The translations under genes were made by a program, and so were the position numbers. Positions 7,339-47,632 of a stretch of 64,000 nucleotides of DNA are shown one piece after another (position 1 is the first letter of the stretch; each line of letters opens with the position of its first letter). The stretch is taken from positions 82,554 through 146,553 of the forward strand of contig JAZDKJ010000002.1 in assembly GCA_043803105.1 (NCBI GenBank), given 5' to 3'. The stretch is from Candidatus Woesearchaeota archaeon. Lineage in GTDB: Archaea > Nanobdellota > Nanobdellia > Woesearchaeales > JAZDKJ01. Below the pieces are notes generated by a model. It had not been told where the DNA came from, searched no databases, and saw only the letters and a program-made list of their open reading frames with translations.

Positions 7339-7403
7339 AGCTTATTTATATAGTTTTGCATAAGCAGTTAGCTTTAAATCTCAACGCGCATTTTCTTAAT
7401 ACC

Positions 7404-8309: not shown

Positions 8310-8310
8310 C

Positions 8311-10994: not shown

Positions 10995-11015
10995 GTTTTT
11001 ACGAAAAAAAGTAAG

Positions 11016-12446
11016 TTACCACGCTATCATCTGGTTTGCTTTCTTGTAGTTCTTGTATACAAGCCACATCTTTGCCCTTGCAGCCCCCATCGCATTGCCA
11101 ACCTCTTTTTCCTGCTTGAAAGGGTCCATTGCCTTTTCTCCTTTTTTTTCTTTTTTCGGCACGAGTGCGTCAGCAAACTCCGCAAATCCCTTTCCCACGC
11201 TTGCCAACGGGTCAAACACATTCATTTTAGGCTTCTCAACCTTGGCTGGCACCTTTGTTTCCACAGATTCTCCTGCTTCCTGTAGGTATTTCTGCAGCTC
11301 CTCGCCAAGCGCCTCCATTGCTGCTTTTACTGAGCCGTCAATCAACCCTATCATTTCAAAGTTCTCGAGGTTTCTCATTTTCTTGTAGCATTCCACGTCA
11401 TTGTCTGTCCATGCATAAGGCCGCAATGTTATCCTGAGCTCTCCCACATGGAGAGGCCCTCTTTGGTATCCTTCCTGAACATAGCTCATCTGGGGCATTG
11501 TCCTGTATTGGAATGATGCAAGCACCACTCCCTTGTATTTGCTGTTTCCCGCCGGAGTGAACTTTGCTAAAAACTCTATCTCTATCATCGAGCCCTCGAA
11601 AGCTGAGATCAGGTCAGGCGTCTCTGCCTTTGCGGCATCTAACTGGAGCCTTTGGATGTTTTTTAGATAAGGTTTTACCCAGCTCATATACATCTGGATT
11701 ATGTCATAATGCTGCCTTAAGTATTTGAGCGTGAAATTGTGCCTGCTCTGCAGTTCTTTGTAGGTTGCCTCCTTCCATTTCATGAAGCTTAACAGTTTTC
11801 TTTTGAGCACGTTCTTTACAGCCTTGTTGAACTGTAGCTTATCGACCACAGTACCGACTTCCTCTGAAGTATCCGGGTTTGTGCCGAAGAATAGATCAGG
11901 CAGGGTCGTGAACTGTAAGTCCCTTGCCATCCCATACACTGATGCAGGGCTTTTTGCCCCTCCCTCAGCCATGTCTATGAAAATCCCCTTTAGGGTTATC
12001 TCTGCCGGTTCAGCCTCCTTGGCGCTAGGTGAATTGCTTTGCTCATAGTAGGACAGCCTTTCCTTTAGGATTCTTATCTCCCTTACCAATTGGAACAGCT
12101 CCTTTACCATCTTTCCGATTGTTGCCAGGAATTGGGAAACCTTGTCCTGCTGCAGCCCAATCCTTTGCTGCGCCACCCCAAAGAATGCCGAGTGCTCAGA
12201 TGCTGCAAACACGTCAGTGATTTTTTCCACATCTATCATCGCCATGTCATAGCGCAGGTAATTAAGTATCCAGAAGTAAGATGCCTCTATCGATGTTGAG
12301 AATGAGTCATGCACAAGCCTGTACCTGAACTTGTTTGCCGGATAGTCCAGTATTGCCATCTGTTCTATTCCAAACTCTACCTCTTCGCGCTTGTATTCCT
12401 TGAAATAGTCCTCTTTTGTTTTTATATCCTCAGGCTTTATTGGCAA
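11016..12446 (-). CDS. Hypothetical protein (476 aa)
   Basis: Long ORF with GAGGTGA RBS before a TTG start. Confidence 0.8.
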   Translation of the reverse strand: MPIKPEDIKTKEDYFKEYKREEVEFGIEQMAILDYPANKFRYRLVHDSFSTSIEASYFWILNYLRYDMAMIDVEKITDVFAASEHSAFFGVAQQRIGLQQDKVSQFLATIGKMVKELFQLVREIRILKERLSYYEQSNSPSAKEAEPAEITLKGIFIDMAEGGAKSPASVYGMARDLQFTTLPDLFFGTNPDTSEEVGTVVDKLQFNKAVKNVLKRKLLSFMKWKEATYKELQSRHNFTLKYLRQHYDIIQMYMSWVKPYLKNIQRLQLDAAKAETPDLISAFEGSMIEIEFLAKFTPAGNSKYKGVVLASFQYRTMPQMSYVQEGYQRGPLHVGELRITLRPYAWTDNDVECYKKMRNLENFEMIGLIDGSVKAAMEALGEELQKYLQEAGESVETKVPAKVEKPKMNVFDPLASVGKGFAEFADALVPKKEKKGEKAMDPFKQEKEVGNAMGAARAKMWLVYKNYKKANQMIAW

Positions 12447-12494
12447 CCATTCACCTCTTTTGGATTTTCTTTCTTTTTGCGTTTATAATTATTT

Positions 12495-12743
12495 CTATTG
12501 TTCGCGGAATTTCGCCCTGCGCTTTTCCTTTATGATTACCACGTTTCCTCTTTGGAAAATCAAATCTGACTGTGTCCCTTTGATTATCTTTTTGATGGTG
12601 TCTTCCCTTTCCGCATTCTCCAGGCTGCTCTTCAATATCTTTATTTTCACTGTCTTTCGCGCCCTTAATTGTTTTATGATTTCTTCTAATGTGTTTTCTG
12701 TTACTCCGTTTTTTCCTATTTGCACTGTGGTTGATTCAATCAC
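12495..12743 (-). CDS. yhbY: YhbY/CRM-domain RNA-binding protein
   Basis: VQIGKNGVT...VKIKILKS...QRGNVVI. Confidence 0.85.
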   Translation of the reverse strand: MIESTTVQIGKNGVTENTLEEIIKQLRARKTVKIKILKSSLENAEREDTIKKIIKGTQSDLIFQRGNVVIIKEKRRAKFREQ

Positions 12744-14446
12744 TTTTGCTGCCTCGGGTGCTCGTGCCCTAGTTCCTTTCTTTTCTTCAATTCAGCTATG
12801 TGGCACAACTTGGTTATCACTATTTTCTCACTGTCATTTGTTGCTTCTTCAAGTATGATCGATGCCCTGTCTCCCCCAAGGAAGTGTGGCAGAATCACAT
12901 AATCTGCCCCGTAATCATAGAGCTTTAGTGCCTCGTCCAACTTATTTGCCGTCACAAATATGGCAGCCTTTTCGTTTACGTGCTTGATTTTTTTTATCAG
13001 GAGCATGTTATCAAATAGGTTTGGCACTGTTGAGATTATGAAGTGCGCGTCTTTAAGGTTGATTTTTTCCAGTATTTCCACATCGCTTATGTCTCCATAC
13101 ACACAGTGGATTTTTTCCTTGATAAGCTTCTTTATTACATCAGGGTTGTAATCAACAACAAGCCAGCTTTTGCCTATTTTGTTCATTGTGTTTGCAATGG
13201 AATAGCCAATCCTATCATAGCCGATTAGCACCACATCGTATTGCTTGTTCTCTTCCCTGTACTCCAAGTCCCCAAATCCTCTCCGATCGAACATGGTTAA
13301 CTTGCTGGCTAGAATGTTATACAGCTGGTTGTCGTACTTGCTTAGGTATGTTGTCCATGTCATGCTCACCACAGCAAGCATTACTGCGAGTGACGCAAGC
13401 TCTACTGACACCTGGCCGAGCATAAGTCCCTGTGCTGCTATTATTAGCGAGAACTCTGAGATCTGGGGTAAGCTAATTGCAGTGAAAAATGAGGTTCTCT
13501 TGGTGTAGCCAAAGAAATAGCAGATTGCCATTGTGATTAGTGGCTTAAGCACTATGATGAGTACCAGGAATATAAGGAAGGGCATTATGATTCTTTCTAT
13601 TCCGTTGTACGGAAGCTGCATTCCGAGGGCCACGAAGAAAAGTGTTGAGAAAAAGTCCCTTAGGGGTTTTACCCTGCTTACAATCTCAAGGTTGTATGGC
13701 AGATTTGCAAGTGTTATCCCTGCAATAAAACCCCCTATCGCAATTGAGAAGCCTATATATGATGCAATAATTGAGAATACAAAGCATGTGGTGATTGACA
13801 TCAGGAACAAGAGCTCTTGCGAGTGCGCGGCAAACCTGAATATTGATGGGAATATGTACCTGCTTACTATTATTGCGGCTGCAAACACGCTGATTGCTTT
13901 CATTATCAGTAGGACTGTTGTCCCCATCCCTGCGCTTCCAGAGTTTGACAATAGTGATATCGCGATTATCGCAAAGATGTCTTCCATGAGAAGTATGCCC
14001 ACCACAATCCTTCCGTGCAAGGTTCCAAGGGTCTTATTGTCTGACATCAGCTTTACCACTACCATGGTTGAGCTAAAAGCCAGGATTAGCCCTATATAAG
14101 TGAGTTCAACACGGGAGAAAGCGTGCGAGACGAATGCCACAAAATAGCCAAAGCCGAACAGGAAAAGGATTTGCAGTGTTCCTCCGACGCTAGCCACTAA
14201 GCCGATGTCCTTTAGCTTTTTTAGGTCCAGCTCAAGCCCCACTACAAAGAGCAGGAATGCTATCCCGATTTCTGAGAAGGTTATTATCAGTCTTGTGTCC
14301 TTGATTAAGCCAAGGCAGAAAGGTCCGATTAATAGGCCGGTAAGGATATATGCAGGCATTAGTGGTTGTTTGAGCAGTCTTGAAGCATAGGCAAATATGG
14401 TTGCTACCACCACAACTATTGCTACGTCAACAAAGAGTTGTTCCAT
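12740..14446 (-). CDS. Kef-type cation/H+ antiporter (CPA2) with TrkA-N domain
   Basis: Many TM helices, LFVVGLE, FSSTMVVVK, QISEFS; C-terminal IGYDRIG RCK domain. Confidence 0.9.
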   Translation of the reverse strand: MEQLFVDVAIVVVVATIFAYASRLLKQPLMPAYILTGLLIGPFCLGLIKDTRLIITFSEIGIAFLLFVVGLELDLKKLKDIGLVASVGGTLQILFLFGFGYFVAFVSHAFSRVELTYIGLILAFSSTMVVVKLMSDNKTLGTLHGRIVVGILLMEDIFAIIAISLLSNSGSAGMGTTVLLIMKAISVFAAAIIVSRYIFPSIFRFAAHSQELLFLMSITTCFVFSIIASYIGFSIAIGGFIAGITLANLPYNLEIVSRVKPLRDFFSTLFFVALGMQLPYNGIERIIMPFLIFLVLIIVLKPLITMAICYFFGYTKRTSFFTAISLPQISEFSLIIAAQGLMLGQVSVELASLAVMLAVVSMTWTTYLSKYDNQLYNILASKLTMFDRRGFGDLEYREENKQYDVVLIGYDRIGYSIANTMNKIGKSWLVVDYNPDVIKKLIKEKIHCVYGDISDVEILEKINLKDAHFIISTVPNLFDNMLLIKKIKHVNEKAAIFVTANKLDEALKLYDYGADYVILPHFLGGDRASIILEEATNDSEKIVITKLCHIAELKKRKELGHEHPRQQK

Positions 14447-34854: not shown

Positions 34855-36306
34855 GTGGTGTGGGAAAGAGTAACGTATAGCGGCAAAAATCATGCAATAT
34901 TCTTCATAGACACAGTGTTCAGGGGATACCAAACAGGTGTTATCAAAGACTTCTTTTTGATAGCTTTTAATCCCACACATTACCGTCAATTTAATGGAGC
35001 AAGATGGTGGTTAAAGGAAGAGATTGATTCCTATGTTTCCGCACTTAGAAATAAAGAAAAGAACTCCCCTGGTTTCTTGCTACAGAAGGCAGAGGAATAT
35101 GAAAGATTAAACCAAGGTTTTTTTGAATGGAGCAGGCAATATAAGAACCTAGATTTTAAGCATATTGATAATAAGAAAATAGCGATAATTCTGTCTGAAT
35201 TTGCAAATCGTTTAACTAAGATTAATGCTCTTGTATATACCAGTATAATGGTAGATAGATTTTATACAGACGAAATAGTAAGATTAATTGCAAAAAAAGA
35301 ACCTACTTTTAACAAACAACAAGAATACCTTAACATCATTTTTTCAATAGAATGGGGTCTCGAAACACATTATGAAAAGGAGTCACTTATTGATATAGCC
35401 GAAAAGTTGCAGAAAAAACCAGTATCACCTGACGTTACTCAGCTTATTGAAAAACATCTAGGCCGTTTTGCTCATCTTAACTTTATGCCTTTTTATAGAC
35501 CTCAAAGTGATAAGGAAAGTGTTCTTGAAGCAATAAAAAATCTGCTTGAAAAAGATATCAAAAAAGAAAAGGTCGAACTGGAAAAACAAAAGCGCAAGTC
35601 CAAGAAAGTTGAAGAACTGAAAAATCTGCTTGCATTGGATGACAAAGAAGTTCTTAAAATCAAAACGATAAGGAAGTGGGCATTCATTGCAAATAATGAT
35701 GACCATTATGTTATGGGTGCAATTTGTGCATTATGGGGATTATGGCAAGAGATAGCCAGAAGATTTAGCATTACATTTGAACAATTTGTTGAGATGCGTA
35801 TTGACGAAATAAAAGAAACCCTGAGAAACGGAGCTATTTCAAATGAATTAAGAGATGAATTGCCTTTGCGATGCCAAGATAATGCTATGATATGGGATGA
35901 AAGAGGTACAAGATTACTGGTTGGCGATGCGCTGGTTAGTTACTATAATGACGAAAAAATAATAGAGGAAGATTTTCACAAGATTATGGAAGTCAAAGGA
36001 TTGCCTGCATCTCAAGGGAAAGCGTTGGGGATCGTTCGCCTTCTCCTGGATATTAGGGACCTCAACAAAGTAGAAAAAGACAATGTTTTGGTTGCTGTAT
36101 ATACATATCCTGCGATTGTAGTTGCAATGGAAAAAGCAAGCGCGATTGTAACCGACCAAGGAGGTCTTTTATCGCATGCAGCCATTGTCAGCAGGGAAAT
36201 GCACAAGCCATGTATTGTAGGAACTGGTATTGCTACAAGAGTATTCAAAGATGGCGATTTAGTTGAGGTAGACGCCACAAATGGAATAGTCAAGAGAATA
36301 AAATAA
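34855..36306 (+). CDS. PEP-utilising enzyme mobile (phosphohistidine swivel) domain protein
   Basis: C-terminal TDQGGLLSHAAIVSREMHKPCIVGT; no ATP-grasp domain; visibly AT-richer than flanks. Confidence 0.85.
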   Translation: MVWERVTYSGKNHAIFFIDTVFRGYQTGVIKDFFLIAFNPTHYRQFNGARWWLKEEIDSYVSALRNKEKNSPGFLLQKAEEYERLNQGFFEWSRQYKNLDFKHIDNKKIAIILSEFANRLTKINALVYTSIMVDRFYTDEIVRLIAKKEPTFNKQQEYLNIIFSIEWGLETHYEKESLIDIAEKLQKKPVSPDVTQLIEKHLGRFAHLNFMPFYRPQSDKESVLEAIKNLLEKDIKKEKVELEKQKRKSKKVEELKNLLALDDKEVLKIKTIRKWAFIANNDDHYVMGAICALWGLWQEIARRFSITFEQFVEMRIDEIKETLRNGAISNELRDELPLRCQDNAMIWDERGTRLLVGDALVSYYNDEKIIEEDFHKIMEVKGLPASQGKALGIVRLLLDIRDLNKVEKDNVLVAVYTYPAIVVAMEKASAIVTDQGGLLSHAAIVSREMHKPCIVGTGIATRVFKDGDLVEVDATNGIVKRIK

Positions 36307-36549
36307 TTGTAAGAACGCAGTTTAAAAAGTTTTTGAATCTAGCTTGCGTGGCATCCAAGGGATATACTATTTCCTTGAGGCATCCTTCTACATAAACTTT
36401 TCGCACAAAAACCCTTTCTTCCACAGGATGATAGGTAAGCTCTTCCAGTATATCCCCAGAGGTGTTAGTGCCTTCATAAACTTTCCACAATTGATTCAGA
36501 AGATTCCATCTTGAAAACAAGAAAACAAAGATTTTCAACCAACCCGAAT

Positions 36550-36963
36550 CTAGCTTGCGCCGCTATACGCAGTCTCTTTCTCTTCGCTCACAGCATTGAT
36601 CACATGCTTGAGCTTTTTCTCCGCTTCTTCTGCAATTTGCTCAACTTTCGGAGCAAGCGTTCCCATTACCTGTGTTGGTAGTATTGCCGTAGCCCAGCAA
36701 ACGCCTTTGTCCTCAAATACGATTATATTGCATGGCAAGAAAAGCCCTGCCTCTTTTTCCTTTTCAAGTGCTTGATGGCTAAGTTTTGGATTGCACGCTC
36801 CAATGATGGTGTAGTTACCGTATTCAAGGTCTATTTTCTTCTTTAGTATTGCCTTGACATCAATCTCGCTTATTACAGAAAAGCCTTCCTTCTCCAGTTC
36901 AACCTTGACTTTTGCCAGTGTTTCAGCGAAATTGCCCTTCGCTGGTTTGCCATAACTATACAA
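36550..36963 (-). CDS. DUF302 domain protein
   Basis: GFSVISEID, IGACNP, GLFLPCNIIV. Confidence 0.85.
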   Translation of the reverse strand: MYSYGKPAKGNFAETLAKVKVELEKEGFSVISEIDVKAILKKKIDLEYGNYTIIGACNPKLSHQALEKEKEAGLFLPCNIIVFEDKGVCWATAILPTQVMGTLAPKVEQIAEEAEKKLKHVINAVSEEKETAYSGAS

Positions 36964-37045
36964 TCATATCACCCAATGAATACATAAAGATTTTAGAGAA
37001 TAAAAAGCTTGTGTCTGATGGCAAAAAAAGGCACAGAAAGAATTT

Positions 37046-37501
37046 CTAAGCTCTGGCTTCCTGCTTTCTGCGTCTCTGACGGAATGCCTCGTTTGCGTTG
37101 TTAAATCCGTGGTAAACAGACTTGCCAAACCAGAAAAGTCCAAAAGCACCAAAACCTAGCCAGCTAATGCCACAGAGCACTCGATTGACCGTGCGCATCC
37201 TGTAATCCTTGATATATTCCTGAGTCTGGCCAATAGTAGCGTGTTGCTCTTTGAGTTGGTTAAGTTGCCTTATTTCCTCAATTCTTGCTTCGAGCATGTC
37301 TGCTGGGATCGGTTCGTCGCGTAACAAATAATTATCAATCCCAGGCCTAATTGTCTGCGTGTACTTTTCAATTGTTGCTTTGGTCGGATATTTATTGTAA
37401 AAATCTCTGTCTAGTTGAACTGCTTTGTTGAACGAATAATAAGACAACCAACTAGTTACTGTAGCACCAATGACAAGCGCTACAATTTGTTTATTGTTCA
37501 T
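37046..37501 (-). CDS. Hypothetical membrane protein
   Basis: 151 aa with N- and C-terminal hydrophobic segments. Confidence 0.6.
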   Translation of the reverse strand: MNNKQIVALVIGATVTSWLSYYSFNKAVQLDRDFYNKYPTKATIEKYTQTIRPGIDNYLLRDEPIPADMLEARIEEIRQLNQLKEQHATIGQTQEYIKDYRMRTVNRVLCGISWLGFGAFGLFWFGKSVYHGFNNANEAFRQRRRKQEARA

Positions 37502-37620: not shown

Positions 37621-38571
37621 ATGAATACCCTTATCAACAAGGATGATGTCCCTAAGTTTCTCTCTGCATTGATGCAGCGCTTTGAGGTTATTGCTCCAAA
37701 GAAGTCAAAGGGCATGCTCTTGTTTGAGCCTATAGCAGATTTCAAGGAGATCGACTTTAGCCAACAGACAAGTTATTCTGCAAAGAAGTATTTTCTTCCA
37801 GCAAAGGAGAGCATTTTTAGTTACAAGGGCACCAAGATAGAGGTCAAGCTTGATTCCAGGCCGCGCATTATCATCATGCATCCATGTGATGCAAACGCTG
37901 TCTTGAACCTTGACAGGATTTTTCTTGACGAGAACCTGGACCCATATTACAAGGCGAGGAGGGATGCCACCCTGCTTTTTGTCTTCAGCTGCTCCCAATC
38001 TTACAAGAACTGTTTTTGCACCTCAGTCAATTCTTGCGAGACAGTGAACTATGACCTTCTTTTTGTTGACATCGGCGACAAGTATGTTGTGAGCGTCGGC
38101 ACCTCAAGGGCAAAAGAGCTCCTCAGCACAAAGCTTTTTACAAATATCATCAGGGAAGGCGCCTGCGAGGTCAAGTGCAAGAAAAAGCTGAATTCCACCA
38201 ACCAGCTTGGCTCCTTCTTTTTGAGCAAGGTCTGGAAGTCTGAGAGTAAGAAATGCCTTTTCTGCAACGCATGCATTATCGCCTGCCCAAGCTGTTTTTG
38301 TTTCACCATGCATGACGAACCCAACCTTGACCTTGTCTCTGGAGAAAGAAAAAGGCAGTGGGATTACTGCTATATGCATGATCACACAAAGGTTGCTGGC
38401 GGCTTTGTTTTCAGGAAGGAGCGCTCTAAGCGCTTCAAGCACCGCATCTATCATCAGCTAAAGTATTTCAAGGATAAGTTTGGCAGGCAATTGTGTGTTG
38501 GCTGCGGCAGGTGCATTGATGTTTGCCCTGCGAAAATTGATATGGTGGAGATTGTGAACTCTTTAAAATGA
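37621..38571 (+). CDS. hydB: Group 3b NiFe hydrogenase beta subunit (Fe-S)
   Basis: HPCD, CFCTS, CLFCNACIIACPSCFC, CVGCGRCIDVCP. Confidence 0.9.
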   Translation: MNTLINKDDVPKFLSALMQRFEVIAPKKSKGMLLFEPIADFKEIDFSQQTSYSAKKYFLPAKESIFSYKGTKIEVKLDSRPRIIIMHPCDANAVLNLDRIFLDENLDPYYKARRDATLLFVFSCSQSYKNCFCTSVNSCETVNYDLLFVDIGDKYVVSVGTSRAKELLSTKLFTNIIREGACEVKCKKKLNSTNQLGSFFLSKVWKSESKKCLFCNACIIACPSCFCFTMHDEPNLDLVSGERKRQWDYCYMHDHTKVAGGFVFRKERSKRFKHRIYHQLKYFKDKFGRQLCVGCGRCIDVCPAKIDMVEIVNSLK

Positions 38572-39365
38572 GCAAGGAAACCGAACTTTACGTGCCAACT
38601 TTGGCAAGGATTGACAAGGTTACTCAGGAGACTAGTGAGGTCAAGACTTTTAAGGTAAGGATGCCTTTGAAGCATGAGCCTGGCCAGTTTGTTCAGCTCT
38701 CTTTGCTTGGCATCGGTGAAGCCCCTGTTTCAATCGCTTCTTCCTCTCCTGAATTTCTTGAGCTGACTGTAAAGAATGTTGGCGCAGTCACAGATTCATT
38801 GTTCAGGTTACAGGAGGGTGACAAGGTTGGCATCAGAGGGCCATATGGCCATGGTTATCCTATGAACGAGTTTAAGGGAAAGGACATAATAATTATTGGC
38901 GGGGGCACAGGCGCTGCCTCTTTACGCGGAGTGCTAAAGTATATTGAGAACAACAAGAAGTCTTTCGGCTCTGTCGATATTTTTCTGGGCTATAGGAGCC
39001 CTGCTGATATACTCTTCAAGAAGGATAATGACAGATGGAGGCACTCCTTCAATTTCAACATAACAGTTGACAAGCCTGATGATAATTGGCAGGGCAACAC
39101 CGGTGTCATTACCACCCTTCTCAACAAGGCCCAGTTCAAGCGCATTAACTCTGCTGTGCTTGCATGTGGTCCACCAATCATGATAAAGTTTGTTGTGCAG
39201 GACCTTCAGGCAATGGGATTCACAGACCAACAGATTTGGGTAAGCCTGGAGCGCATGATGAAGTGCGGTTTTGGCAAGTGCGGACATTGCATGGTCCAGG
39301 ACCGCTATGTTTGCAAGGATGGCCCTGTATTTAATTATCTTGACGCAAAATACCTGGAGGACTAA
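38568..39365 (+). CDS. hydG: Group 3b hydrogenase gamma subunit (FAD/NAD(P)-binding)
   Basis: PGQF, RGPYGHG, GGGTG, CGPPIM, CGFGKCGHC...C.DGPVF. Confidence 0.92.
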   Translation: MSKETELYVPTLARIDKVTQETSEVKTFKVRMPLKHEPGQFVQLSLLGIGEAPVSIASSSPEFLELTVKNVGAVTDSLFRLQEGDKVGIRGPYGHGYPMNEFKGKDIIIIGGGTGAASLRGVLKYIENNKKSFGSVDIFLGYRSPADILFKKDNDRWRHSFNFNITVDKPDDNWQGNTGVITTLLNKAQFKRINSAVLACGPPIMIKFVVQDLQAMGFTDQQIWVSLERMMKCGFGKCGHCMVQDRYVCKDGPVFNYLDAKYLED

Positions 39366-39368
39366 GAG

Positions 39369-40130
39369 ATGAAGCCTGTTGTGGGATTTTTTTCTTTCAC
39401 TGGCTGTTCAGGTTGCACTCTTGAGGTCATCCACCAGGAGGGCATTTTCCTTGACCTTATGGACAAGATGAAGATAGTGCATTTCCCTCTTGTGCAAGGA
39501 AAGAACGCGCTTTGCGACCTTGACATCGCTGTTGTTGAAGGCAGCATCTCAACAAAGGAACAGCAGGAAAAGCTTCTGCTCATACGGCAAAAATCAAAGT
39601 TCCTTATTGCCCTTGGTGCGTGCTCAGGCATTGGTGGCGTTAATGCTATCCGCAATACTCTTAACGAAAAGCAGGTTGAAAAGCTTGTCTACTCGGGCAA
39701 GAACAAGTGGAAGTCCACAAGGCTTGAGCCAATAGGCAAGTTTGTGCCTGTTGATTACTATGTCAGGGGCTGCCCTCCTGTAAAAGAGGATTTTGACTGT
39801 GCGTTGAAGCAGCTCTTGTTGAGGTCAAAGCCCTTCGTGTACAATCAGCCTGTCTGCTCTGAGTGCAGGATTAAGGAAAATCCCTGCCTTCTTTCGCAAG
39901 GCAGACTATGCTTGGGCCCAATCACGTTTGGCGGTTGCGACGCAATATGCCCTTCGAACAAGCTTCCCTGTGATGGATGCAGGGGAAAGACTGAGGATGC
40001 AAATTTCAATGCGTTAAAGCAGGTGCTCGAGGACAATGGTTTTTCAAAGCAGGACATTAAGAAATTGGCCTCTTTGTTCAACTCAAATGTTGACTTTAGC
40101 ACAAAGGTTGAAGTGGTGAAACCAAAATGA
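39369..40130 (+). CDS. hydD: Group 3b hydrogenase delta (small) subunit
   Basis: CSGC, VEGS, GACS, GCPP and distal Cys clusters. Confidence 0.92.
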   Translation: MKPVVGFFSFTGCSGCTLEVIHQEGIFLDLMDKMKIVHFPLVQGKNALCDLDIAVVEGSISTKEQQEKLLLIRQKSKFLIALGACSGIGGVNAIRNTLNEKQVEKLVYSGKNKWKSTRLEPIGKFVPVDYYVRGCPPVKEDFDCALKQLLLRSKPFVYNQPVCSECRIKENPCLLSQGRLCLGPITFGGCDAICPSNKLPCDGCRGKTEDANFNALKQVLEDNGFSKQDIKKLASLFNSNVDFSTKVEVVKPK

Positions 40131-41395
40131 ATTCTATTGAGATTGATAATATTACCAAGATTGAAGGACATGCAAAGCTATCAGTGAAGCTCGAGTCAGG
40201 ACAGGTCAAGGTTGTGCATCTTGATGTTGTCGAAGGTGCCCGTTATTTTGAGGCTATGGTCAAGGGCAGGAATTTCAATGAGGTGCCGATGATAACTTCA
40301 AGGATCTGCGGCATCTGCAGCCAGGCGCATTCACTGGCTTCTCTTCAGGCGATTGAGAAAGCTTTAGGAGTAAAGGTCTCAAATCAGACTATGCAGCTGC
40401 GTAACCTGCTTCATCTCGGTTCACTTATACAGAGCCATGCCCTGCATTTATATTTCCTTGCCTTGCCAGATTATCTGGGTTTTGACAATGCTGTTGCTAT
40501 GGCACAGAAGCGCTTGCTTGACGTGAAGCGCGGCTTGCTCTTGAAAAGGCTTGGCAACAGGATATGCGAGGTTGTATCAGGTAGGCAGATTCACTCCATT
40601 ACTTGTGTGGTTGGCGGTTTCTCCAACCTCCCCAGCTCTAAGCAACTTTTGTCCTTGAAAGAGGACTTGCAAAAAAACAGGCAAGAGGCTTTAATGACCG
40701 TTTCATTGTTCAGCAAGCTAAAGATGCCAAAGTTGGAAAGAAAGACTGTCTATCTCTCTTTGAAGGTTCCAAAGCAATTCTCTCTATTGCAAGGGAATGT
40801 AGTCTCGTCGCAAAAGACCGACTTCAAGCAGGAAAAATATCGCCAGTTTTTAACTGAGCTTGTCTTGCCTGACTCCACTGCAAAGAATGTTCTCTTCAAG
40901 CAGTCTTCCTGCATGGTTGGCAGCCTTGCCAGGCTGAATAATGGCCGGGATTCCCTGTCCTTTAATGCAAAGAGGGCAGCCAAGTGCATAAAGTTCCCAT
41001 GCTATAATCCGTTCATGAACAATCTTTGCCAGGCTATAGAAATTGTAAGCTTCATTGACAAGAGCATCTCAATAATTGAGGGGCTTGAGTTAAAGGAAGA
41101 GCCTCTGCCAAAGATTAAGCCAAGGTCTGGCCACGGCATTAGCATTATTGAGGCTCCACGAGGCCTTCTGATACATGAATGCAAGATAAATTCAAAAGGA
41201 GATATTTCTGACTACAACATTATTGCCCCAACAACTATTAACATCAAGAACATTGAGGAAGACATTTCAGCACTTCTCCCAAGCCTTATCAAAAAGCCCG
41301 AGAAAGAGGTTGTTCTTGAGCTTGAGAAGCTTATCCGTGCATATGACCCCTGCATAAGCTGCAGTGCTCACTTTCTTGAGCTCAATTGGACGTAA
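40127..41395 (+). CDS. hydA: Group 3b hydrogenase alpha (large) subunit
   Basis: IEGH, RICGIC, EAPRG, DPCISCSAH plus cleavable tail FLELNWT. Confidence 0.95.
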   Translation: MNSIEIDNITKIEGHAKLSVKLESGQVKVVHLDVVEGARYFEAMVKGRNFNEVPMITSRICGICSQAHSLASLQAIEKALGVKVSNQTMQLRNLLHLGSLIQSHALHLYFLALPDYLGFDNAVAMAQKRLLDVKRGLLLKRLGNRICEVVSGRQIHSITCVVGGFSNLPSSKQLLSLKEDLQKNRQEALMTVSLFSKLKMPKLERKTVYLSLKVPKQFSLLQGNVVSSQKTDFKQEKYRQFLTELVLPDSTAKNVLFKQSSCMVGSLARLNNGRDSLSFNAKRAAKCIKFPCYNPFMNNLCQAIEIVSFIDKSISIIEGLELKEEPLPKIKPRSGHGISIIEAPRGLLIHECKINSKGDISDYNIIAPTTINIKNIEEDISALLPSLIKKPEKEVVLELEKLIRAYDPCISCSAHFLELNWT

Positions 41396-41765
41396 GCTTT
41401 TTCAGGATCTTCTCAACCTCAGCTTGCAGCTCTTCTTTTTTACCCTGCATCGGTATTCCGATTATTGTCACCTTGGGAAGCTCTTTTGCAGCCTCAAGAA
41501 TTGACATGAATTTTGCTATGTCAAAGTCATGCATTGATATGGTTTGCCTTGTCTTTAGCATTTTTGTACCGTGCAATACAACCACTTTTTTTAAGTTCCT
41601 TACCACGTCCAGGATTATGACTTCGCTCTCTTTTGGATAGTCAAGTATTTCATCTATCGATGTGCATTTCCTTATGGGAAACCCCTTGATGCCTTTGGCT
41701 ATCTCTGCCGCAATGCTGTCTTCCTTCAAGAACTCGTTTCCATAGCACAATATTGCTTTGTTCAC
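41382..41765 (-). CDS. Hydrogenase maturation protease-like protein
   Basis: YGNEFLKEDS, IILD, SMHDF, IIGIP; convergent on hydA. Confidence 0.75.
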   Translation of the reverse strand: MNKAILCYGNEFLKEDSIAAEIAKGIKGFPIRKCTSIDEILDYPKESEVIILDVVRNLKKVVVLHGTKMLKTRQTISMHDFDIAKFMSILEAAKELPKVTIIGIPMQGKKEELQAEVEKILKKLTSN

Positions 41766-41842
41766 TTCTGTCAGGCTGTTCTCGTCAGTAATAAAGCTTT
41801 CGCTAGAAAAATTTTTAAAGCACCTTGTTTTTTCACGAACTC

Positions 41843-42733
41843 ATGGAAAAAAGAGCTGTTGTTCTTGTCTTTCTCACAGCTATCGTAAGCGGAGTCTCGA
41901 TTTTCGCGAACAAGTTCGCAGTCTCTGGGATAAATTCATCAGTCTTCACATTCCTCAAGAATTCTATGGTAGCTTTGTTTTTGTTTTCATTGATATTGCT
42001 CTTGGGCGAGCTCCCTCGCTTGAGATCTCTTACCAAGAAGAATTGGTTGATGCTTGCACTTGTTGGCTTTGTTGGAGGCTCGCTTCCGTTTTTGCTTTAC
42101 TTCAGGGGGCTTCAGCTTACCTCAAGCAGCAATGCCTCTTTCATCCACAAGACCATGTTTGTTTATGTCATTGTGTTGGCTGCGCTTTTCCTCAAGGAGA
42201 AGATAAACAAGACTGTTGTGTTGTCTGCCCTTGCATTGCTTGTTGGCAATGCTTTAATAATTGGTTTTGATCACCTTGCCATCGGTGATCTGCTGATTGT
42301 TGCTGCTACCATGCTTTGGGCTATTGAGAATGTGCTTTCAAAGCATCTCTTGAAAGACATCCCGTGGAAGCTTGTTGCATTTTCAAGGATGTTTTTCGGT
42401 TCTTTGTTCATCCTTTGCTTCCTTGCCTTGACCGATCAACTGCATTTTGTTGGCACGCTTTCTTCTGCTCAGATAGGCTGGATTCTCCTCACTTCAGCCT
42501 TCCTTGTTTTATACACTCTCACTTGGTATGGAGGTCTTTCAGGTGTGAAGGTCAGCACAGCTGCTTCAATCCTTTGCCTTGGCTCTGTCATCACAACTCT
42601 GCTTGACCACTACTTCTTTATGGCCTCATTGGCTTGGACCCAACTTATCGGAATGCTTCTCTTGGTTGTTGGTGTGTTTGGCACTTTGGGCATAACCAAG
42701 TTGATTTTTGCGCACAATGCCAGATGGTCTTAA
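41843..42733 (+). CDS. DMT/EamA family transporter
   Basis: About 10 TM in two repeats, LFLKEKI. Confidence 0.85.
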   Translation: MEKRAVVLVFLTAIVSGVSIFANKFAVSGINSSVFTFLKNSMVALFLFSLILLLGELPRLRSLTKKNWLMLALVGFVGGSLPFLLYFRGLQLTSSSNASFIHKTMFVYVIVLAALFLKEKINKTVVLSALALLVGNALIIGFDHLAIGDLLIVAATMLWAIENVLSKHLLKDIPWKLVAFSRMFFGSLFILCFLALTDQLHFVGTLSSAQIGWILLTSAFLVLYTLTWYGGLSGVKVSTAASILCLGSVITTLLDHYFFMASLAWTQLIGMLLLVVGVFGTLGITKLIFAHNARWS

Positions 42734-43433
42734 ATTTGCTGCACGGTTCTCGTACATAACCAACTATTTGGATTTCTGCGGCCCTCGTAAGCCCAATATT
42801 CTATACGACTTTGTTACAGGCAAGCAACATGATAAGCCAAAGGTTGAAGACCACCTTTCTCGTTTTGAGGTGCTTCTTCCCTATCTCAAGTCCATTTCTG
42901 CGAAGCACTCTATGGATTGCTTTGATTACAAGGTTGTAGAAGCCTATTGGCTCGGCAACAAGCTTCTTGACAAGTTCAACTCAGATGATATGTTCCATAT
43001 TATCTCTGCCCTTGAAAAGAGGGGTCTTGTGCATTCCATGGCAGATCAGCTTAGGCATCATTTGCCAGCAGGCATGCTTCCCCACCACTCATTTAATGTC
43101 TTCTATGTTGGTGTTGGCTCTGTAACCCATTCTGTCAAGGCAACGCTGCAGAACATGGACAAGTGCAGGATTGCCTGCGCAATGGTAAGGGAGGTAAAAT
43201 CCAAGAGTCTTATCGTGAAATATTGTCCGCTTCGCGCTGTCAACAAGAAAATCACTTTTGGCTCTCTCCTGAAAAAGAAAGTGATTTACGACCCTGCCTT
43301 CCTTCCTTCAGTGCAGCCAAACTCACTGGTTGCCCTGCACTGGGATTTTGCTGTAGAAATTCTCTCAGAAAAGCAAAAGGAGAATCTTGAGCACTACACC
43401 TCTGTTGTTCTTGACTCCCTTAACCAGAGATAG
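42717..43433 (+). CDS. DUF6390-like protein with HypC-like C-terminus
   Basis: ARFSY..N.L.FCGP, VVEAYWLGN, PHHSFNV, MDKCRI, VALHWDFAVEIL. Confidence 0.75.
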   Translation: MPDGLKFAARFSYITNYLDFCGPRKPNILYDFVTGKQHDKPKVEDHLSRFEVLLPYLKSISAKHSMDCFDYKVVEAYWLGNKLLDKFNSDDMFHIISALEKRGLVHSMADQLRHHLPAGMLPHHSFNVFYVGVGSVTHSVKATLQNMDKCRIACAMVREVKSKSLIVKYCPLRAVNKKITFGSLLKKKVIYDPAFLPSVQPNSLVALHWDFAVEILSEKQKENLEHYTSVVLDSLNQR

Positions 43434-43632
43434 TTTTCTGATACGCCTTGAGGCTTTCTATTGCTTCTTTCCTTGGGATTTTTTGCACAACCATTCCGTG
43501 CTGTACTATTATGTATTCTCCGACTTTGTATTTTCCATCAATCAGTGCTGCCTGGCGTTTGTGCGTTCCATAATCCACTATAACTTCCTTGGAAGTCTTC
43601 TTCACTATCTTGCCTGGTATTGCTAAGCACAT
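43420..43632 (-). CDS. hypC: HypC/HybG/HupF hydrogenase chaperone
   Basis: MCLAIPGKIV...KVGEYIIVQHG. Confidence 0.9.
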   Translation of the reverse strand: MCLAIPGKIVKKTSKEVIVDYGTHKRQAALIDGKYKVGEYIIVQHGMVVQKIPRKEAIESLKAYQKTISG

Positions 43633-43937
43633 TTTTTCAAAAGTATTTGGTCTCCTTCAATAATTTTGGGATTTCCTCCGCATTCAGGGCAGTTGAAGAG
43701 CACTATGTCATGCACCCTTTCCATGATTCTTGGCCTTCCAACATATCCGCACTTGCATTCCACGATGGCCTTCTTTGTGATAATCTCAACCTTCCAATCC
43801 ACAAGGTTGGCTAGAGTCTCGGCTAATTCTCCTGGTGTGATCTTTGCCAGTTCTCCGACCTCTACCACAATGCTTTTTGCAGCCCCTCTCTTTTTTGCTT
43901 CCCGCACTATTTCGTCAGCTATAGCTAGTTCATGCAT
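43623..43937 (-). CDS. hypA: Hydrogenase nickel chaperone HypA
   Basis: MHELAIA N-terminus (true start 43937), VGEL, CKC...CPEC. Confidence 0.9.
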   Translation of the reverse strand: MHELAIADEIVREAKKRGAAKSIVVEVGELAKITPGELAETLANLVDWKVEIITKKAIVECKCGYVGRPRIMERVHDIVLFNCPECGGNPKIIEGDQILLKKCA

Positions 43938-44859
43938 TTTCCTTCCTAATCTTTGCCACGAAGAATCCTTCTGTGTTGTTGTCTTGCGGCCAAACCCTGA
44001 GTGTTTTTCCGACCTCTGGATTGTATTTCCTTCCGTCAAATTCTGTTATTGGCTCGCTGCTCTTTGCAGGCAATTTTATTTGTTCCAATCTTGCCTCTGG
44101 GAACTCTTCCAGGATGAAATCTATTACCCCCTCGTTCTCTACAGGGTCTATGCTGCAGGTTGAATAGACTATAATGCCTCCTGGCTTCAGGTTCTGGTAC
44201 GCTATCCTTGCCAGTTGCTTTTGCGTTCTTGCGAGCCTTTCTATCATTAATGGGTTCCACATCTGTATCGTCTTTAACGATTTCCTTATAGTTCCTGTGC
44301 CTGAGCATGGTGCATCAAGCAGCACCTTGTCAAACTGCAGCCCTCTGAAGCTGAATCCTTGCATCAGCGTCACTATTGTATTCATCACTCCCATTCTTTG
44401 GAGGTTTATTCCTAAGGCAGCTAGCCTTATTCCCTTGTAATCATTCGCAACCAATATACCCTGGTTTTCCATCTTTGCAGCTATCTGTGTTGATTTTGAT
44501 CCAGGTGCGGCGCACATGTCCAGCACCATCTCGTGTGCCTTTGGCTCAAGTACCTCTACAGGCATCATTGACGCTGCATCTTGCACGTAGAAATATCCAA
44601 GGCTGTGTCCTGGCAGGTTGCCGATGTCTCTTCGTTCATCATGCTCGATCCAGAACCCTTCCCTGCACCATGGAACCTGCTCCAGTCTCCATTCAGCGTT
44701 GATTTCAGACTTTAGCTTTGCTACAGTAGTCTTTATCGTATTGACCCTTAGGCTTCTTCGTGCTCTTAATATGGAGTATTTCTTGAATTCCTCAAAGTCA
44801 GTTATCTTTGAATAACGCTCGATAAACCCTTTCTTGAATTCCAGTTTCTCAACGTCCAT
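43930..44859 (-). CDS. RsmB/NOP2/NSUN RNA m5C methyltransferase
   Basis: YVQD, DMCAAPGSKS, DAPCSGTG, YSTCS, EGFF. Confidence 0.93.
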   Translation of the reverse strand: MDVEKLEFKKGFIERYSKITDFEEFKKYSILRARRSLRVNTIKTTVAKLKSEINAEWRLEQVPWCREGFWIEHDERRDIGNLPGHSLGYFYVQDAASMMPVEVLEPKAHEMVLDMCAAPGSKSTQIAAKMENQGILVANDYKGIRLAALGINLQRMGVMNTIVTLMQGFSFRGLQFDKVLLDAPCSGTGTIRKSLKTIQMWNPLMIERLARTQKQLARIAYQNLKPGGIIVYSTCSIDPVENEGVIDFILEEFPEARLEQIKLPAKSSEPITEFDGRKYNPEVGKTLRVWPQDNNTEGFFVAKIRKENA

Positions 44860-44884
44860 AGAAGAACACAAAGTTGCTGCTTAT

Positions 44885-45274
44885 TTAAAGTTTCCCCAGG
44901 TAACACCAGTTTTCCACTTCTGGAATTCCTGGTTGTGCAAGGGTTACTTCACAGAATTTTGTAAGCTTGCGGTCAGCAATTGTGATTCTCCCCCTGTTAT
45001 TATAGATTAGGTTTACATATTCAAGTGCTTTGATTGCAGTCAATTGTTTCCTGTCGCCAAACCTTAGATGCGAGAGCTCTGCCATTATTTCTGGTATCTC
45101 CCAATACTTGTTATTTGAATCGATTACTCCTCTAAGCGGTATGTAAGGACCTCCTGCCTCAAAAGGTGCAGTCCTCCAGCCCTCCCAGGCATATTTTTCT
45201 GCCAGATCATCTAGTTCGTCAACATCATCAAAGTCTATCTCGTACAACTCAATTACTGGATGTCTGCAATTCAT
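44885..45274 (-). CDS. Hypothetical protein
   Basis: 129 aa ATG ORF; no motif. Confidence 0.55.
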   Translation of the reverse strand: MNCRHPVIELYEIDFDDVDELDDLAEKYAWEGWRTAPFEAGGPYIPLRGVIDSNNKYWEIPEIMAELSHLRFGDRKQLTAIKALEYVNLIYNNRGRITIADRKLTKFCEVTLAQPGIPEVENWCYLGKL

Positions 45275-45375
45275 GTGTTTGTAAGTTTCAAGCCGGGCTT
45301 AAAAATCTTGTTTTTATTTCAGAGTGGTAAGACACCGCAAAATTTATAAGTCCAGGAGATTCAATCTCTTTTTTG

Positions 45376-45729
45376 ATGAAAGGTCTGATTGATGCTCTGA
45401 TTGCTCGCGGTTATCAGCCGTTCCGTGTTTCTCAAGCACTAACTGAAAAGTTCAAATCAGCCACAGTCCAAAACTGTCACAACGGAAGTCAGTGCCTTGT
45501 TGAAAGAATTAATTTTGATGGTGAATCACTTGAATTCGAACCATTACAGCTCAAAGGTGCTCCGTTTAAGGCCGGCTGGATTGGCATCGAAGACTACAAC
45601 CAGATAACAGAGGTCGAAATACAAGGTCTGCTTTACATGAAAACACCCAGTACACTCTATGTTGTTGTAAAGCCTGGCATGGAAATACCCCCTAATCCGG
45701 CTGAGCTGTATGCTCAAAAAAACCCTTAG
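45376..45729 (+). CDS. Hypothetical protein
   Basis: ORF with TTTATAA about 30 nt upstream. Confidence 0.55.
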   Translation: MKGLIDALIARGYQPFRVSQALTEKFKSATVQNCHNGSQCLVERINFDGESLEFEPLQLKGAPFKAGWIGIEDYNQITEVEIQGLLYMKTPSTLYVVVKPGMEIPPNPAELYAQKNP

Positions 45730-45815
45730 TCTTATAGAAATCTTTAAATACTGAAATGTAAAACTTGAATTTAAATGCTTCTCCAATTTGTTAGGAGTAA
45801 AGGTTGAGGTATAGC

Positions 45816-46484
45816 ATGGCGATCAATAACAAGGATTTTGTCCAAATCGAATATACTGGGATGATCTCAGAGTCAAAAGAGGTCTTCGATACTACTGACA
45901 AGGCCATTGCAAAGAAGCAAGGCATTTTTGATGAGCATGCTGTTTTTGGTCCTGTGACACTTTGTGTTGGCGAGGGCTTTGTATTGAAAGGCCTTGAGGA
46001 AAGGCTCATCGGCAAGGATGTCGGTGAGTTTGAGTTTGAAATCTCGCCCGAAGAAGGCTTTGGCAAAAAGTCAGCCAAGTTGATCCAACTCGTTCCAACC
46101 TCAAAATTCATAAAGCAGGAGATAATGCCGATGCCTGGTTTGCAGATAAACATTGACGGCTTGATGGGTACTGTCAAAACAGTCACTGGAGGCCGCACTA
46201 TTGTTGATTTCAATCATCCTCTTTCAGGCAGGTCTTTGCACTACAATGTCAAGGTCATCAAGGTCATTCATGACGAGAAGGAGAAGGCAGAGGCAATCCT
46301 CAAATGGCTCTTTAGGCTTGATGCAGACCTGTCTTTGAATGAAAAAACATTAACTATTAAAACAGCGAGCCTTCCAAAAGAGATTGAGGAAGAGGTATCA
46401 AAAAAGGTAAAGGATTTGACCTCGATAACAACAGTAGTTTTTGAGAAAAAACAAGCTCACAAGCCAGTAAATACAGAGGCATAA
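45816..46484 (+). CDS. FKBP-type peptidyl-prolyl isomerase (archaeal long type)
   Basis: IEYTG, VFDTT, PEEGFG, VDFNHPLSG. Confidence 0.92.
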   Translation: MAINNKDFVQIEYTGMISESKEVFDTTDKAIAKKQGIFDEHAVFGPVTLCVGEGFVLKGLEERLIGKDVGEFEFEISPEEGFGKKSAKLIQLVPTSKFIKQEIMPMPGLQINIDGLMGTVKTVTGGRTIVDFNHPLSGRSLHYNVKVIKVIHDEKEKAEAILKWLFRLDADLSLNEKTLTIKTASLPKEIEEEVSKKVKDLTSITTVVFEKKQAHKPVNTEA

Positions 46485-46528
46485 CTTTAAATATTAGTAA
46501 TTCAATTATTGACGATAGAGAGTGGTTT

Positions 46529-47632
46529 ATGACAACAGTCTTTAAGCAAGGAGAAACAGAAAAATCTGCTAAGGCAACAAAGTCCAACGCAATGGATGCT
46601 GAGCTGGAGGAATTTCTCTCAAAGCAGAAAGCAACCATCAAGGTTGTTGGAGCAGGTGGCGGTGGCAACAATACAATCAACAGGATTACTGAAGTCGGCA
46701 TTATGGGTGCTGAGACTATTGCAGTGAATACTGACGCACAGGATTTGCTGTACACTACTGCCGACAAGAAGATACTCATAGGAAAAGAAGTCACCAAAGG
46801 TATGGGTGCAGGGGCTGACCCAAAAAAGGGAGAGGCTGCTGCGCGAGAGGGAGAGCATGAATTAAAGCAGGCCATGGCCCATGCTGATATGGTTTTCATT
46901 ACCTGCGGCCTTGGCGGTGGTACAGGAACAGGTGCTGTGCCAATCATCGCTGATATTTCAAAAAAGCTTGGTGCTTTGACAGTTGCTGTTGTTACCTTGC
47001 CCTTTACAATGGAGGGCAGGCGGCGCTACGAGAACGCCGTTGTGGGCTTGGAAAAGCTCGAGAACATCGTTGACACGCTCATAGTTATTCCGAATGACAA
47101 GCTTTTGGAGCTTGCTCCTGATCTGCCGTTGCAGACTGCTTTCAAGGTCGCTGATGAGATCCTGACTAATGCTGTCAAGGGCATTGCAGAGCTTGTCACA
47201 AAAGCTGGTTTGATAAACCTTGATTTTGCCGACATCAAGGCAGTCATGGAGAACGGTGGTGTTGCTCTCATTGGAGTTGGAGAGAGCGATACTGATAATC
47301 GCGCAGTAGAGGCTGTCGAGAAGGCAATCACTAATCCGCTCTTGGATGTTGACATCAGCGGTGCAAACGGTGCGCTGATAAATGTTATTGGCGGCCCTGA
47401 TATGACCTTGGAGGAGGCAAAGAAGGTTGTGGAAGTAGTCTCTGAAAAGCTTGATGCGGACGCAAAGATTATTTGGGGTGCCCAGATTTATGAGGACCTC
47501 GAAAAGACTATAAGGACAATGCTTATCGTTACTGGCGTAAAATCTTCTCAGATTCTAGGCCACAGCACAACAATCTCTGACGGTCACAAGAAAGAGATTG
47601 AGAATGAACTAGGCATTGATTTTATTGATTAA
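46529..47632 (+). CDS. ftsZ: Cell division protein FtsZ
   Basis: GAGGGGNN, GLGGGTGTG, INLDFAD. Confidence 0.97.
   Translation: MTTVFKQGETEKSAKATKSNAMDAELEEFLSKQKATIKVVGAGGGGNNTINRITEVGIMGAETIAVNTDAQDLLYTTADKKILIGKEVTKGMGAGADPKKGEAAAREGEHELKQAMAHADMVFITCGLGGGTGTGAVPIIADISKKLGALTVAVVTLPFTMEGRRRYENAVVGLEKLENIVDTLIVIPNDKLLELAPDLPLQTAFKVADEILTNAVKGIAELVTKAGLINLDFADIKAVMENGGVALIGVGESDTDNRAVEAVEKAITNPLLDVDISGANGALINVIGGPDMTLEEAKKVVEVVSEKLDADAKIIWGAQIYEDLEKTIRTMLIVTGVKSSQILGHSTTISDGHKKEIENELGIDFID

Follow-up and report, generated by a model that had tools for sequence, protein, structure and literature searches.

How is a [NiFe] hydrogenase matured in an archaeon whose genome offers no HypD, HypE or HypF? 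This question is raised by a gene cluster of Candidatus Woesearchaeota archaeon in the 64,000 nucleotides of contig JAZDKJ010000002.1 analysed here (the window), where the genes of a four-subunit hydrogenase are accompanied by those of a protease, an EamA/DMT permease, a protein of the DUF6390 family, HypC and HypA. The accessible part of Sawers et al. (2025, PMC12134894) describes canonical Fe(CN)2CO assembly as the task of a HypC-HypD scaffold together with HypE and HypF, with six Hyp proteins being necessary. In dozens of relatives from several phyla, the catalytic cysteines, HypA, HypC and the protease were found retained without HypD, HypE and HypF. These HypDEF-less carriers always had a HypC-derived protein, usually wired to a permease, and no HypB above cut-off where it was searched for. 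The component alternating with HypDEF is the EamA permease, not DUF6390. Judged from gene order and gene fusions, the EamA-DUF6390 pair very probably constitutes a unit serving hydrogenase maturation. That it acts as a permease-plus-receiver unit which makes HypDEF dispensable, and in this way substitutes for them, is a plausible reading of the genome comparison, with a likelihood that we place a little short of even.

The earlier note on this DNA, which was confined to the window, had reported hypB, hypD, hypE and hypF as absent from it, and this absence holds genome-wide. Using six-frame profile searches of the whole genome (G000; 1.56 Mb in 13 contigs, 96.47% complete), none of the four was found above cut-off. 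HypD and HypE yielded no candidates at all. For HypF only four sub-threshold pieces of 31-35 bits were obtained (cut-off 466), which, by their position in the HypF model, are taken to be Kae1/TsaD-like, YrdC/Sua5-like and acylphosphatase-like housekeeping parts. For HypB a single piece of 22.5 bits (cut-off 121) was found. As a positive control, identical searches succeeded in control genomes that carry these genes. Five high-quality DUF6390-bearing relatives, which include a 1.3 Mb single-contig genome with a completeness rating of 100%, had no HypE and neither HypF nor HypB above cut-off. The HypE search of the own genome returned no PurM/AIR-synthase-type candidate, which fits a strongly reduced biosynthesis, as does the lack of BATS-type radical S-adenosylmethionine (SAM) enzymes (BioB, ThiH, HydE, HydG) in this genome.

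Relatives of DUF6390 are encoded in at least 587 species genomes, and the family comprises 715 representatives at 50% identity. The best 80 loci of these at least 587 genomes plus the window gave a set of 81 loci, and the genomes with the closest DUF6390 loci formed a set of 50. All genomes were metagenome bins, and those that are related do not count as independent cases; completeness was given for the phylum sample only and not for the 50-genome, Thermoplasmata and Actinomycetota sets. A [NiFe] large subunit was found in 49 of the 50 genomes, while HypD was found in three (G016, G032, G049; partly unpublished, as the set includes the unpublished G049 and G028), HypF in the same three, and HypE above cut-off in two plus G016 in two frames. 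For the window's phylum 201 genomes were sampled (the phylum sample), each with a counted completeness of 90% or more. Using a large-subunit match at E 1e-8, 36 genomes with a large subunit were found, along with 16 with DUF6390 and 6 with HypD. Fifteen hydrogenase genomes had neither HypD nor DUF6390. In 10 of these a protein of 153-168 residues occupied the same slot, adjoining EamA and/or hypC (loci L087-L099, e.g. L097:3009-3482 and L088:13687-14151). It is a remote DUF6390 homologue without the middle (PHH) segment (profile-profile probability 98.5%, E 3e-15), with the motifs FPCA ... EHN ... CKV ... GDKVxIHxGxAVE and no Pfam family of its own. Ten of these short homologues were scanned: eight gave HupF_HypC matches of 14-29 bits (cut-off 28.5), one of them just above, and two gave none; in three of the ten, Ser replaces the Cys at the HypC position. 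A search with the alignment of the short form identified it in 15 of the 201 genomes. At the thresholds used, exactly one of HypD, DUF6390 or the short homologue was found in 35 of the 36 hydrogenase genomes (6 HypD only, 15 DUF6390 only, 14 short form only), with one genome having none (G156) and no genome having two. One DUF6390 genome (G218) and one short-form genome (G158) were without a large-subunit match at E 1e-8. All three solutions occur within the single genus label g17. In the Thermoplasmata sample (n=151), HypD was found in 99 genomes and DUF6390 in 10, with no overlap. Three Chloroflexota genomes of 2.7-3.4 Mb (G039 and G050, loci L075 and L086; G044, locus L080) carry DUF6390 and large-subunit frames of 442 to about 1000 amino acids and gave no HypD, HypE or HypF match; the absence of HypDEF thus extends beyond genome-reduced symbionts and beyond short 3b-type enzymes.

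A pattern of this kind could also arise if the hydrogenase were inactive or decaying, or if HypDEF were missing through incomplete bins, for which the metagenomic origin of all genomes and the partial record of completeness would speak. We consider this very improbable. The own genome is 96.47% complete, the 201 phylum genomes reach at least 90% and the single-contig carrier 100%; the same search readily found HypD in 99 of 151 Thermoplasmata; and different phyla alike have kept the Ni-Fe cysteine motifs together with the protease, HypA and HypC.

Another source of CO and CN ligands, the radical-SAM route of HydG and HydE, was ruled out for the own genome by the lack of any BATS-domain enzyme and for most carriers by the presence of HydG in only 2 of the 50 DUF6390 genomes. 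It was encountered in the one phylum hydrogenase genome left without HypD, DUF6390 or the short form, G156. There (L093, G156:C8:136500-153500, 7323-12950) a hydD-hydA pair encoding [NiFe] small and large subunits of 155 and 429 amino acids is bordered by opposite-strand genes for a protease, HydG (459 amino acids, TIGR03955 562 bits) and a 427-residue HypC::HydE fusion, whose HydE part scores above cut-off (TIGR03956, 267 bits). In this 98% complete genome no HypD, no form of DUF6390 and no [FeFe] hydrogenase domain were found. A similar pair, HydG (459 amino acids) beside a HypC::radical-SAM fusion (422 amino acids), is present in G033, a genome of the candidate phyla radiation (CPR; L110, G033:C4:46000-57063, 7703-10356), on a contig other than that of its hydrogenase-adjoining EamA-DUF6390; G033 likewise gave no [FeFe] hydrogenase domain.

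Comparing EamA rather than DUF6390 with HypD resulted in the clearer alternation. For 62 hydrogenase loci both states were known: 45 were EamA-positive and HypD-negative, one was positive for both (G016), eight were EamA-negative and HypD-positive, and eight were negative for both. In several genomes of the last group the short-form gene was found on another contig. The two Actinomycetota loci with EamA beside DUF6390 (G390, G317) are both HypD-negative, and no EamA was found at the fetched HypD-positive loci of this phylum, one of which is a 4.8 kb contig. In a FastTree phylogeny of 71 large subunits, the HypD-positive rows were scattered, the label "no HypD" including loci with untested genomes. 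Eleven phylogenetically independent pairs differed in EamA; HypD differed in the opposite direction in 3-6 of them and in the same direction never, with a marginal median p of 0.06. The large subunit of L065, where HypDEF is present and DUF6390 stands without EamA, is 72% identical to that of L007, an EamA-DUF6390 locus without HypDEF, and L103 and L105, 64% identical, differ in the same way. Of the 71 large subunits, 69 retain one Ni-Fe motif and 70 the other, which points to the same cofactor being made. The taxonomy under which some bins were deposited looks unreliable: several loci carry labels such as "uncultured Methanosarcinales archaeon" or "uncultured Gammaproteobacteria bacterium" but resemble Woesearchaeota or CPR in their genes and in the large-subunit tree.

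The genes of the window cluster, identified by family matches, are as follows.

37621..38571, plus strand: hydB, Fe-S (beta) subunit, group-3b-like; Fer4_22 103 bits; AsrA/ShyB/HydB-like matches of 157-189 bits, below the equivalog cut-offs.
38568..39365, plus strand: hydG, FAD/NAD(P)-binding (gamma) subunit with NAD_binding_1, DHODB_Fe-S_bind and FAD_binding_6 domains; AsrB/HydG-like.
39369..40130, plus strand: hydD, small (delta) subunit; Oxidored_q6 81.6 bits; sulfhyd_HydD 177.6 bits.
40127..41395, plus strand: hydA, [NiFe] large subunit; NiFeSe_Hases PF00374 126 bits; ShyA/HydA about 300 bits.
41382..41765, minus strand: HycI-like maturation endopeptidase (protease); PF01750 25.5 bits (cut-off 23).
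41825..42733, plus strand: EamA/DMT permease; PF00892 133.9 bits, two repeats.
42708..43433, plus strand: DUF6390 protein; PF19927 134.2 bits, E 7e-39; likely start at the ATG at 42717.
43420..43632, minus strand: hypC, stand-alone Fe chaperone; PF01455 50.6 bits; N-terminus MCLAIPGK.
43623..43937, minus strand: hypA, nickel metallochaperone; PF01155 35.9 bits (cut-off 28.9) from residue 35 of the open reading frame (ORF).

The earlier note had described a complete hydBGDA of group 3b with intact Ni-Fe ligands, followed by a protease, an EamA gene overlapping a DUF6390-like gene, and hypC-hypA. All nine genes were recovered at the coordinates given, and order and overlap were confirmed. On the plus strand at 37621-41395, hydBGDA encodes a contiguous four-subunit (alpha, delta, gamma, beta) cytoplasmic [NiFe] hydrogenase, whose best family matches are the Pyrococcus-type sulfhydrogenases. 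Both cysteine pairs of HydA are intact (RICGICSQAH and DPCISCSAH), and its translation ends in a C-terminal tail of 7 residues (FLELNWT). The group label had to be softened. The four-subunit cluster and the L1/L2 CxxC motifs agree with it, but the HydA/ShyA scores, at about 300 bits, fall far short of the equivalog cut-offs (700 and 880), and the enzyme was therefore labelled 3b-like by its family matches. The protease, convergent to hydA, stayed below the cut-off of TIGR00072 (32.9 versus 47.45 bits). HypA, with the start MHELAIADE and two zinc CxxC pairs (CKCG and CPECG), did not reach the NCBIfam equivalog cut-offs. Both hypC and hypA are convergent to the DUF6390 gene. The stop codon of the permease gene (TAA, 42731-42733) lies 17 nucleotides inside the DUF6390 gene, counted from the ATG at 42717. 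The permease has about ten predicted helices and weak TIGR00950 and YddG matches. The flanking regions of the window (34855-37501 and 43930-47632) contain a 483-residue protein whose sole recognised domain is a C-terminal PEP-utilizers mobile domain, a DUF302 protein, a 151-residue protein without family, an RsmB/F-type methyltransferase overlapping the region upstream of hypA and, at 46529-47632, an ORF whose translation we take by eye to be FtsZ-like. None of these flanking genes recurs in related loci.

The 80 fetched loci and the window were scanned with profiles built from those loci, gene calls being ORF scans. In 66 of the 81 loci, across archaea and bacteria, EamA immediately precedes DUF6390 on the same strand. 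Twelve loci were without EamA, and four of these end at that side. HypC was present in 68 of the loci, the large subunit in 55 and hypA in 32, which are lower bounds as many contigs are short. Gene order varies by lineage: hydBGDA-hypC-EamA-DUF6390 in Thermoplasmata, hydB-hydG-hypC-EamA-DUF6390-hydD-hydA-hypA in CPR bacteria, with the trio placed between hydBG and hydDA, and hydBGDA-protease-EamA-DUF6390 with convergent hypC and hypA in Woesearchaeota. The hypC/EamA/DUF6390 trio stays together throughout. Clustering of greedy ORF calls from these loci yielded no further conserved gene family. Cluster 7 (388 amino acids, 21 loci, no Pfam match) runs antisense over the EamA match in its representative locus L056 and was interpreted as a spurious ORF opposite EamA in loci of high GC. 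While a single-sequence query for longer DUF6390 homologues returned none, an alignment-based search found six single-chain EamA::DUF6390 proteins. Inspected by eye, P0255 shows a clean fusion, its two parts joined by a hydrophilic linker of about 35 residues; in P0258 the second EamA half reads out of frame, possibly an artefact. PadR::DUF6390 fusions were found at one Chloroflexia and two Dormibacterota loci (L075:9449-10693, L073:1036-2247, L082:7910-9181) and a GntR::DUF6390 protein among the family representatives; P0190 and P0246 are proteins with such a helix-turn-helix (HTH) fusion. One HTH-fusion genome (G046) gave no [NiFe] large-subunit match. In these lineages the family seems to act as the sensing part of a transcription factor. 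Because it was found fused to both permeases and HTH domains, we view DUF6390 as a portable ligand-binding module.

The same neighbourhoods bear on the possibility that DUF6390 is an accessory only, i.e. an extra HypC-type chaperone or sensor like HupF/HoxL, with EamA unrelated and simply co-regulated and with the HypDEF task performed by unrecognised genes or partner cells. DUF6390-type proteins do accompany these hydrogenases with or without HypDEF, the family also occurs in transcription-factor fusions, and DPANN and CPR organisms rely on hosts for many functions, as is generally known and stated in the accessible part of Jaffe et al. (2020, PMC7304191). The EamA::DUF6390 fusions, however, argue for joint function, as does the finding that at 66 of 81 loci the two genes overlap at start and stop or lie close together; and no other conserved gene family was found at the 80 loci and the window. 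Moreover, the HypDEF-less module was found in Thermoplasmata and Chloroflexota genomes of 1.5-3.4 Mb and in Actinomycetota genomes of 3.2-4.2 Mb, which are unlikely to be obligate symbionts. We therefore regard a purely accessory role as rather unlikely, and the genomes just named also contradict the supply from a host that the earlier note had offered, at least as a general answer.

What kind of protein is DUF6390? The earlier note had called the window protein DUF6390-like. It turned out to be a true member of the family, with residues 5-241 aligning to positions 3-240 of the 244-position PF19927 model at 134.2 bits (cut-off 25). Alignments of 26 (A1) and 121 (A2) members revealed the conserved columns C24-G25-P26, Y59, E78, W81, G83, N84, P125-H126-H127, C153 and H211-W212. 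H211 never varies in A1 and occurs in 90% or more of A2. The candidate ligands named before (FCGP, PHHS, DKCRI) are all present, and their Cys and His residues occupy invariant or near-invariant family columns. In an AlphaFold2 model calculated from the 121-row alignment (mean predicted local distance difference test score, pLDDT, 97), residues 1-153 form a helical domain and residues 156-219 a small beta-barrel, after which comes a final helix. Barrel and helix, i.e. the C-domain (154-241), are HypC-like: the top Foldseek row was Thermococcus kodakarensis HypC (2z1c, E 2.8e-3), and the family profile matched the sequence of the same PDB entry at E 6.9e-4, aligning "gdivaiHWglavekL" with "GDWVIVHTGFAIEKL" at H211. 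As the barrel matches HypC, C153 falls at the place of the essential N-terminal Cys of HypC and H211 into its "VHxGFA" strand. The resemblance of the VALHWDFA segment to this HypC strand, noticed earlier by eye, was in this way borne out by structure and profile. The HypC-equivalent Cys is internal, at residue 153 after NMDK; there is no free N-terminal Cys. The window DUF6390 gave no PF01455 or TIGR00074 match, and BLASTP of the window HypC against it returned no alignment. Folded alone, the N-domain was again all-helical (pLDDT 91); no convincing structural or sequence relative and no clear PDB match were found for it.

A conserved set of two Cys and two to three His residues would suit Ni(II) as well, and DUF6390 could be a Cys/His nickel receiver or sensor that replaces HypB, with EamA importing nickel or a nickel chelate and the Fe-CN/CO moiety made by something else. 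HypB was above cut-off neither in the own genome nor in the five high-quality relatives, the PadR/GntR fusions resemble metal or ligand sensors, and DUF6390 coexists with HypCDEF in some genomes. Nickel permeases are common in hydrogenase clusters, and high nickel rescues hypB mutants. We nevertheless judge a nickel supply unlikely. The conserved DUF6390 domain derives from the iron carrier HypC and keeps its iron-linked Cys and His, EamA has no conserved Cys or His, and we know of no nickel importer of the DMT family. Such a supply would also leave 47 of the 50 genomes without a candidate for the task of HypDEF and gives no reason for the alternation of EamA with HypDEF in sister lineages.

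Under the substitution of HypDEF that we favour, EamA would act as a membrane carrier moving a small metal-containing or ligand-donating species. DUF6390 would be its cytoplasmic receiver, in which N-domain and HypC-like barrel jointly present a putative Cys/His site (C24, H126/127, C153, H211). We infer that it would capture the moved species and hand the iron part to the stand-alone HypC and/or to HydA; HypA would then insert nickel and the protease trim the HydA tail. As cargo we would guess either an Fe-CO/CN unit or something that donates these ligands. Such a cargo would explain the loss of three genes, the kept iron-linked residues of HypC, the permease fusion and the sensor fusions. 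That an Fe-CN/CO species or its precursor is indeed transported we regard as doubtful. Equally tentative is the full salvage scheme, in which many uncultured archaea and bacteria take up the Fe-carbonyl-cyanide unit or a direct donor via EamA, dock it on DUF6390 and load HypC and the large subunit.

Several observations weigh against substitution and salvage. In the Actinomycetota sample (n=151) DUF6390 was found in 10 genomes, and 5 of these 10 also had HypD (G049, G319, G358, G359, G398; of these, G049 and G398 are unpublished); the distance between them in G319 is 12 kb. A profile built in this analysis, run on the hydrogenase loci of the six HypD-positive relatives, detected in G089 a diverged DUF6390 of 177 amino acids (L112, G089:C3:143500-163000, 8249-8782, minus strand) between hypF and the protease, in a full hypA-hypC-hypD-hypE/hypF plus hydBGDA cluster without EamA. 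This form keeps VEAYWIGN, PYHN, NCLV and IHWG, lacks the CGP part and scores 32 bits with PF19927; the large subunit of G089 is 79% identical to that of the EamA-DUF6390 locus L019. As the Pfam genome search at E 1e-5 missed it, the absence of phylum genomes with two solutions depends on the threshold. The Thermoplasmata genome G016 has EamA-DUF6390 plus HypF and HypD/E matches. At G016:C1:336889-343565 a second hydrogenase is followed by hypF; the hypD match is interrupted by three TGA stops and spread over several frames, and hypE is split in two frames, which would reflect either decay or faulty sequencing. DUF6390 shows neither an Fe-S cluster motif nor a recognisable catalytic domain and has only two conserved Cys; it therefore cannot copy the redox chemistry of HypD. 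In EamA, which lacks conserved Cys and His, the invariant polar residues are E125, E168 and R188. The PadR/GntR fusions suggest a ligand-sensing module rather than an assembly scaffold. Eight loci have neither EamA nor HypD, and the independent-pairs result is marginal. HypB and HypDEF tend to be missing together, and phyletics alone cannot tell which Hyp function was replaced. To our knowledge there is no natural pool of Fe-CN/CO species. Finally, the evidence is genomic or predicted throughout.

Taken together, DUF6390 and HypD are largely exclusive (3 of 50 genomes; 0 of 10 in Thermoplasmata) but co-occur in 5 of 10 Actinomycetota and in G089, and this coexistence with HypCDEF rules out DUF6390 as a plain equivalent of HypD. 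EamA alternates with HypD across the 62 loci, although the pairs test is marginal. The earlier note had proposed an alternative cofactor scaffold or a salvage route. A HypC-related protein together with a permease where HypDEF are missing agrees with part of this proposal. The coexistence with HypCDEF and the HTH fusions speak against a simple HypD stand-in.

If the pair replaces HypDEF, a compact six-gene set for making [NiFe] hydrogenases would result, H2 cycling by genome-reduced DPANN and CPR organisms and some soil archaea would be explained, and the origin of the CO and CN ligands would become testable from a new angle. Salvage, if true, would be a hydrogenase-cofactor salvage comparable to that of corrinoids and a third route beside HypCDEF and HypC::HydE/HydG. 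If the pair is not a replacement, how these lineages mature their hydrogenase remains a question. The present analysis contributes the genome-wide absence of HypB, HypD, HypE and HypF above cut-off in a near-complete carrier, the one-of-four tally in the phylum, DUF6390 in a short and in a diverged form, the contrast seen in Thermoplasmata and the evidence that EamA, not DUF6390, alternates with HypDEF. In the literature, no paper was found that mentions DUF6390 or links EamA with hydrogenase and hypC, and searches on hypD/E/F with CPR, DPANN, Woesearchaeota or group 3b yielded no report of HypDEF-less [NiFe] hydrogenases. CPR hyd1/hyd2 clusters related to group 3b with a hypC-like family are described by Jaffe et al. 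(2020, PMC7304191), the accessible part of which does not discuss maturation. A parallel absence of HydEFG was reported for archaeal [FeFe] enzymes, and in the accessible part of that paper for [FeFe] only (Greening et al. 2024, PMC11216029).

With known EamA/DMT permeases (PF00892) the window EamA shares two repeats and about ten helices. YddG and EamA/YdeD are exporters of amino acids and cysteine derivatives from this family. Unlike these, the window subfamily is hard-wired to DUF6390 and hydrogenase genes and at times fused to DUF6390. HupK/HoxV with HupF/HoxL are, according to the accessible part of PMC12134894, intermediate Fe(CN)2CO carriers of O2-tolerant hydrogenases that depend on HypCDEF. 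They are comparable as extra hydrogenase-specific carriers around HypC-type proteins, which would fit the Actinomycetota DUF6390 coexisting with HypCDEF; however, HupK/HoxV resemble large subunits and DUF6390 does not. The HypC::HydE plus HydG pair is likewise a HypC-domain fusion beside [NiFe] hydrogenases in HypDEF-less genomes and fills the remaining slot in the phylum (G156), but it has recognisable CO/CN chemistry (HydG, 562 bits), of which EamA-DUF6390 has none. Like the HypC-HypD scaffold with HypE and HypF, DUF6390 stands beside hypC, largely alternates with HypD among archaeal relatives and offers Cys/His ligands next to a HypC fold. In contrast to HypD (PF01924), to which it has no sequence or fold relation, it lacks the four-Cys [4Fe-4S] motif and the Rossmann fold. 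A further likeness is to HypC/HybG/HupF (PF01455; T. kodakarensis HypC 2z1c, 3vyr). The last 90 residues of DUF6390 have the same barrel-plus-helix fold, the Cys at the HypC Cys2 position and the His of the "VHxGFA" strand are kept, and the gene lies beside hydrogenase and hypC. Different from HypC, its Cys is internal (153) instead of at a processed N-terminus, a conserved helical domain of 150 residues precedes the barrel, and the protein is paired or fused with a permease or an HTH domain.

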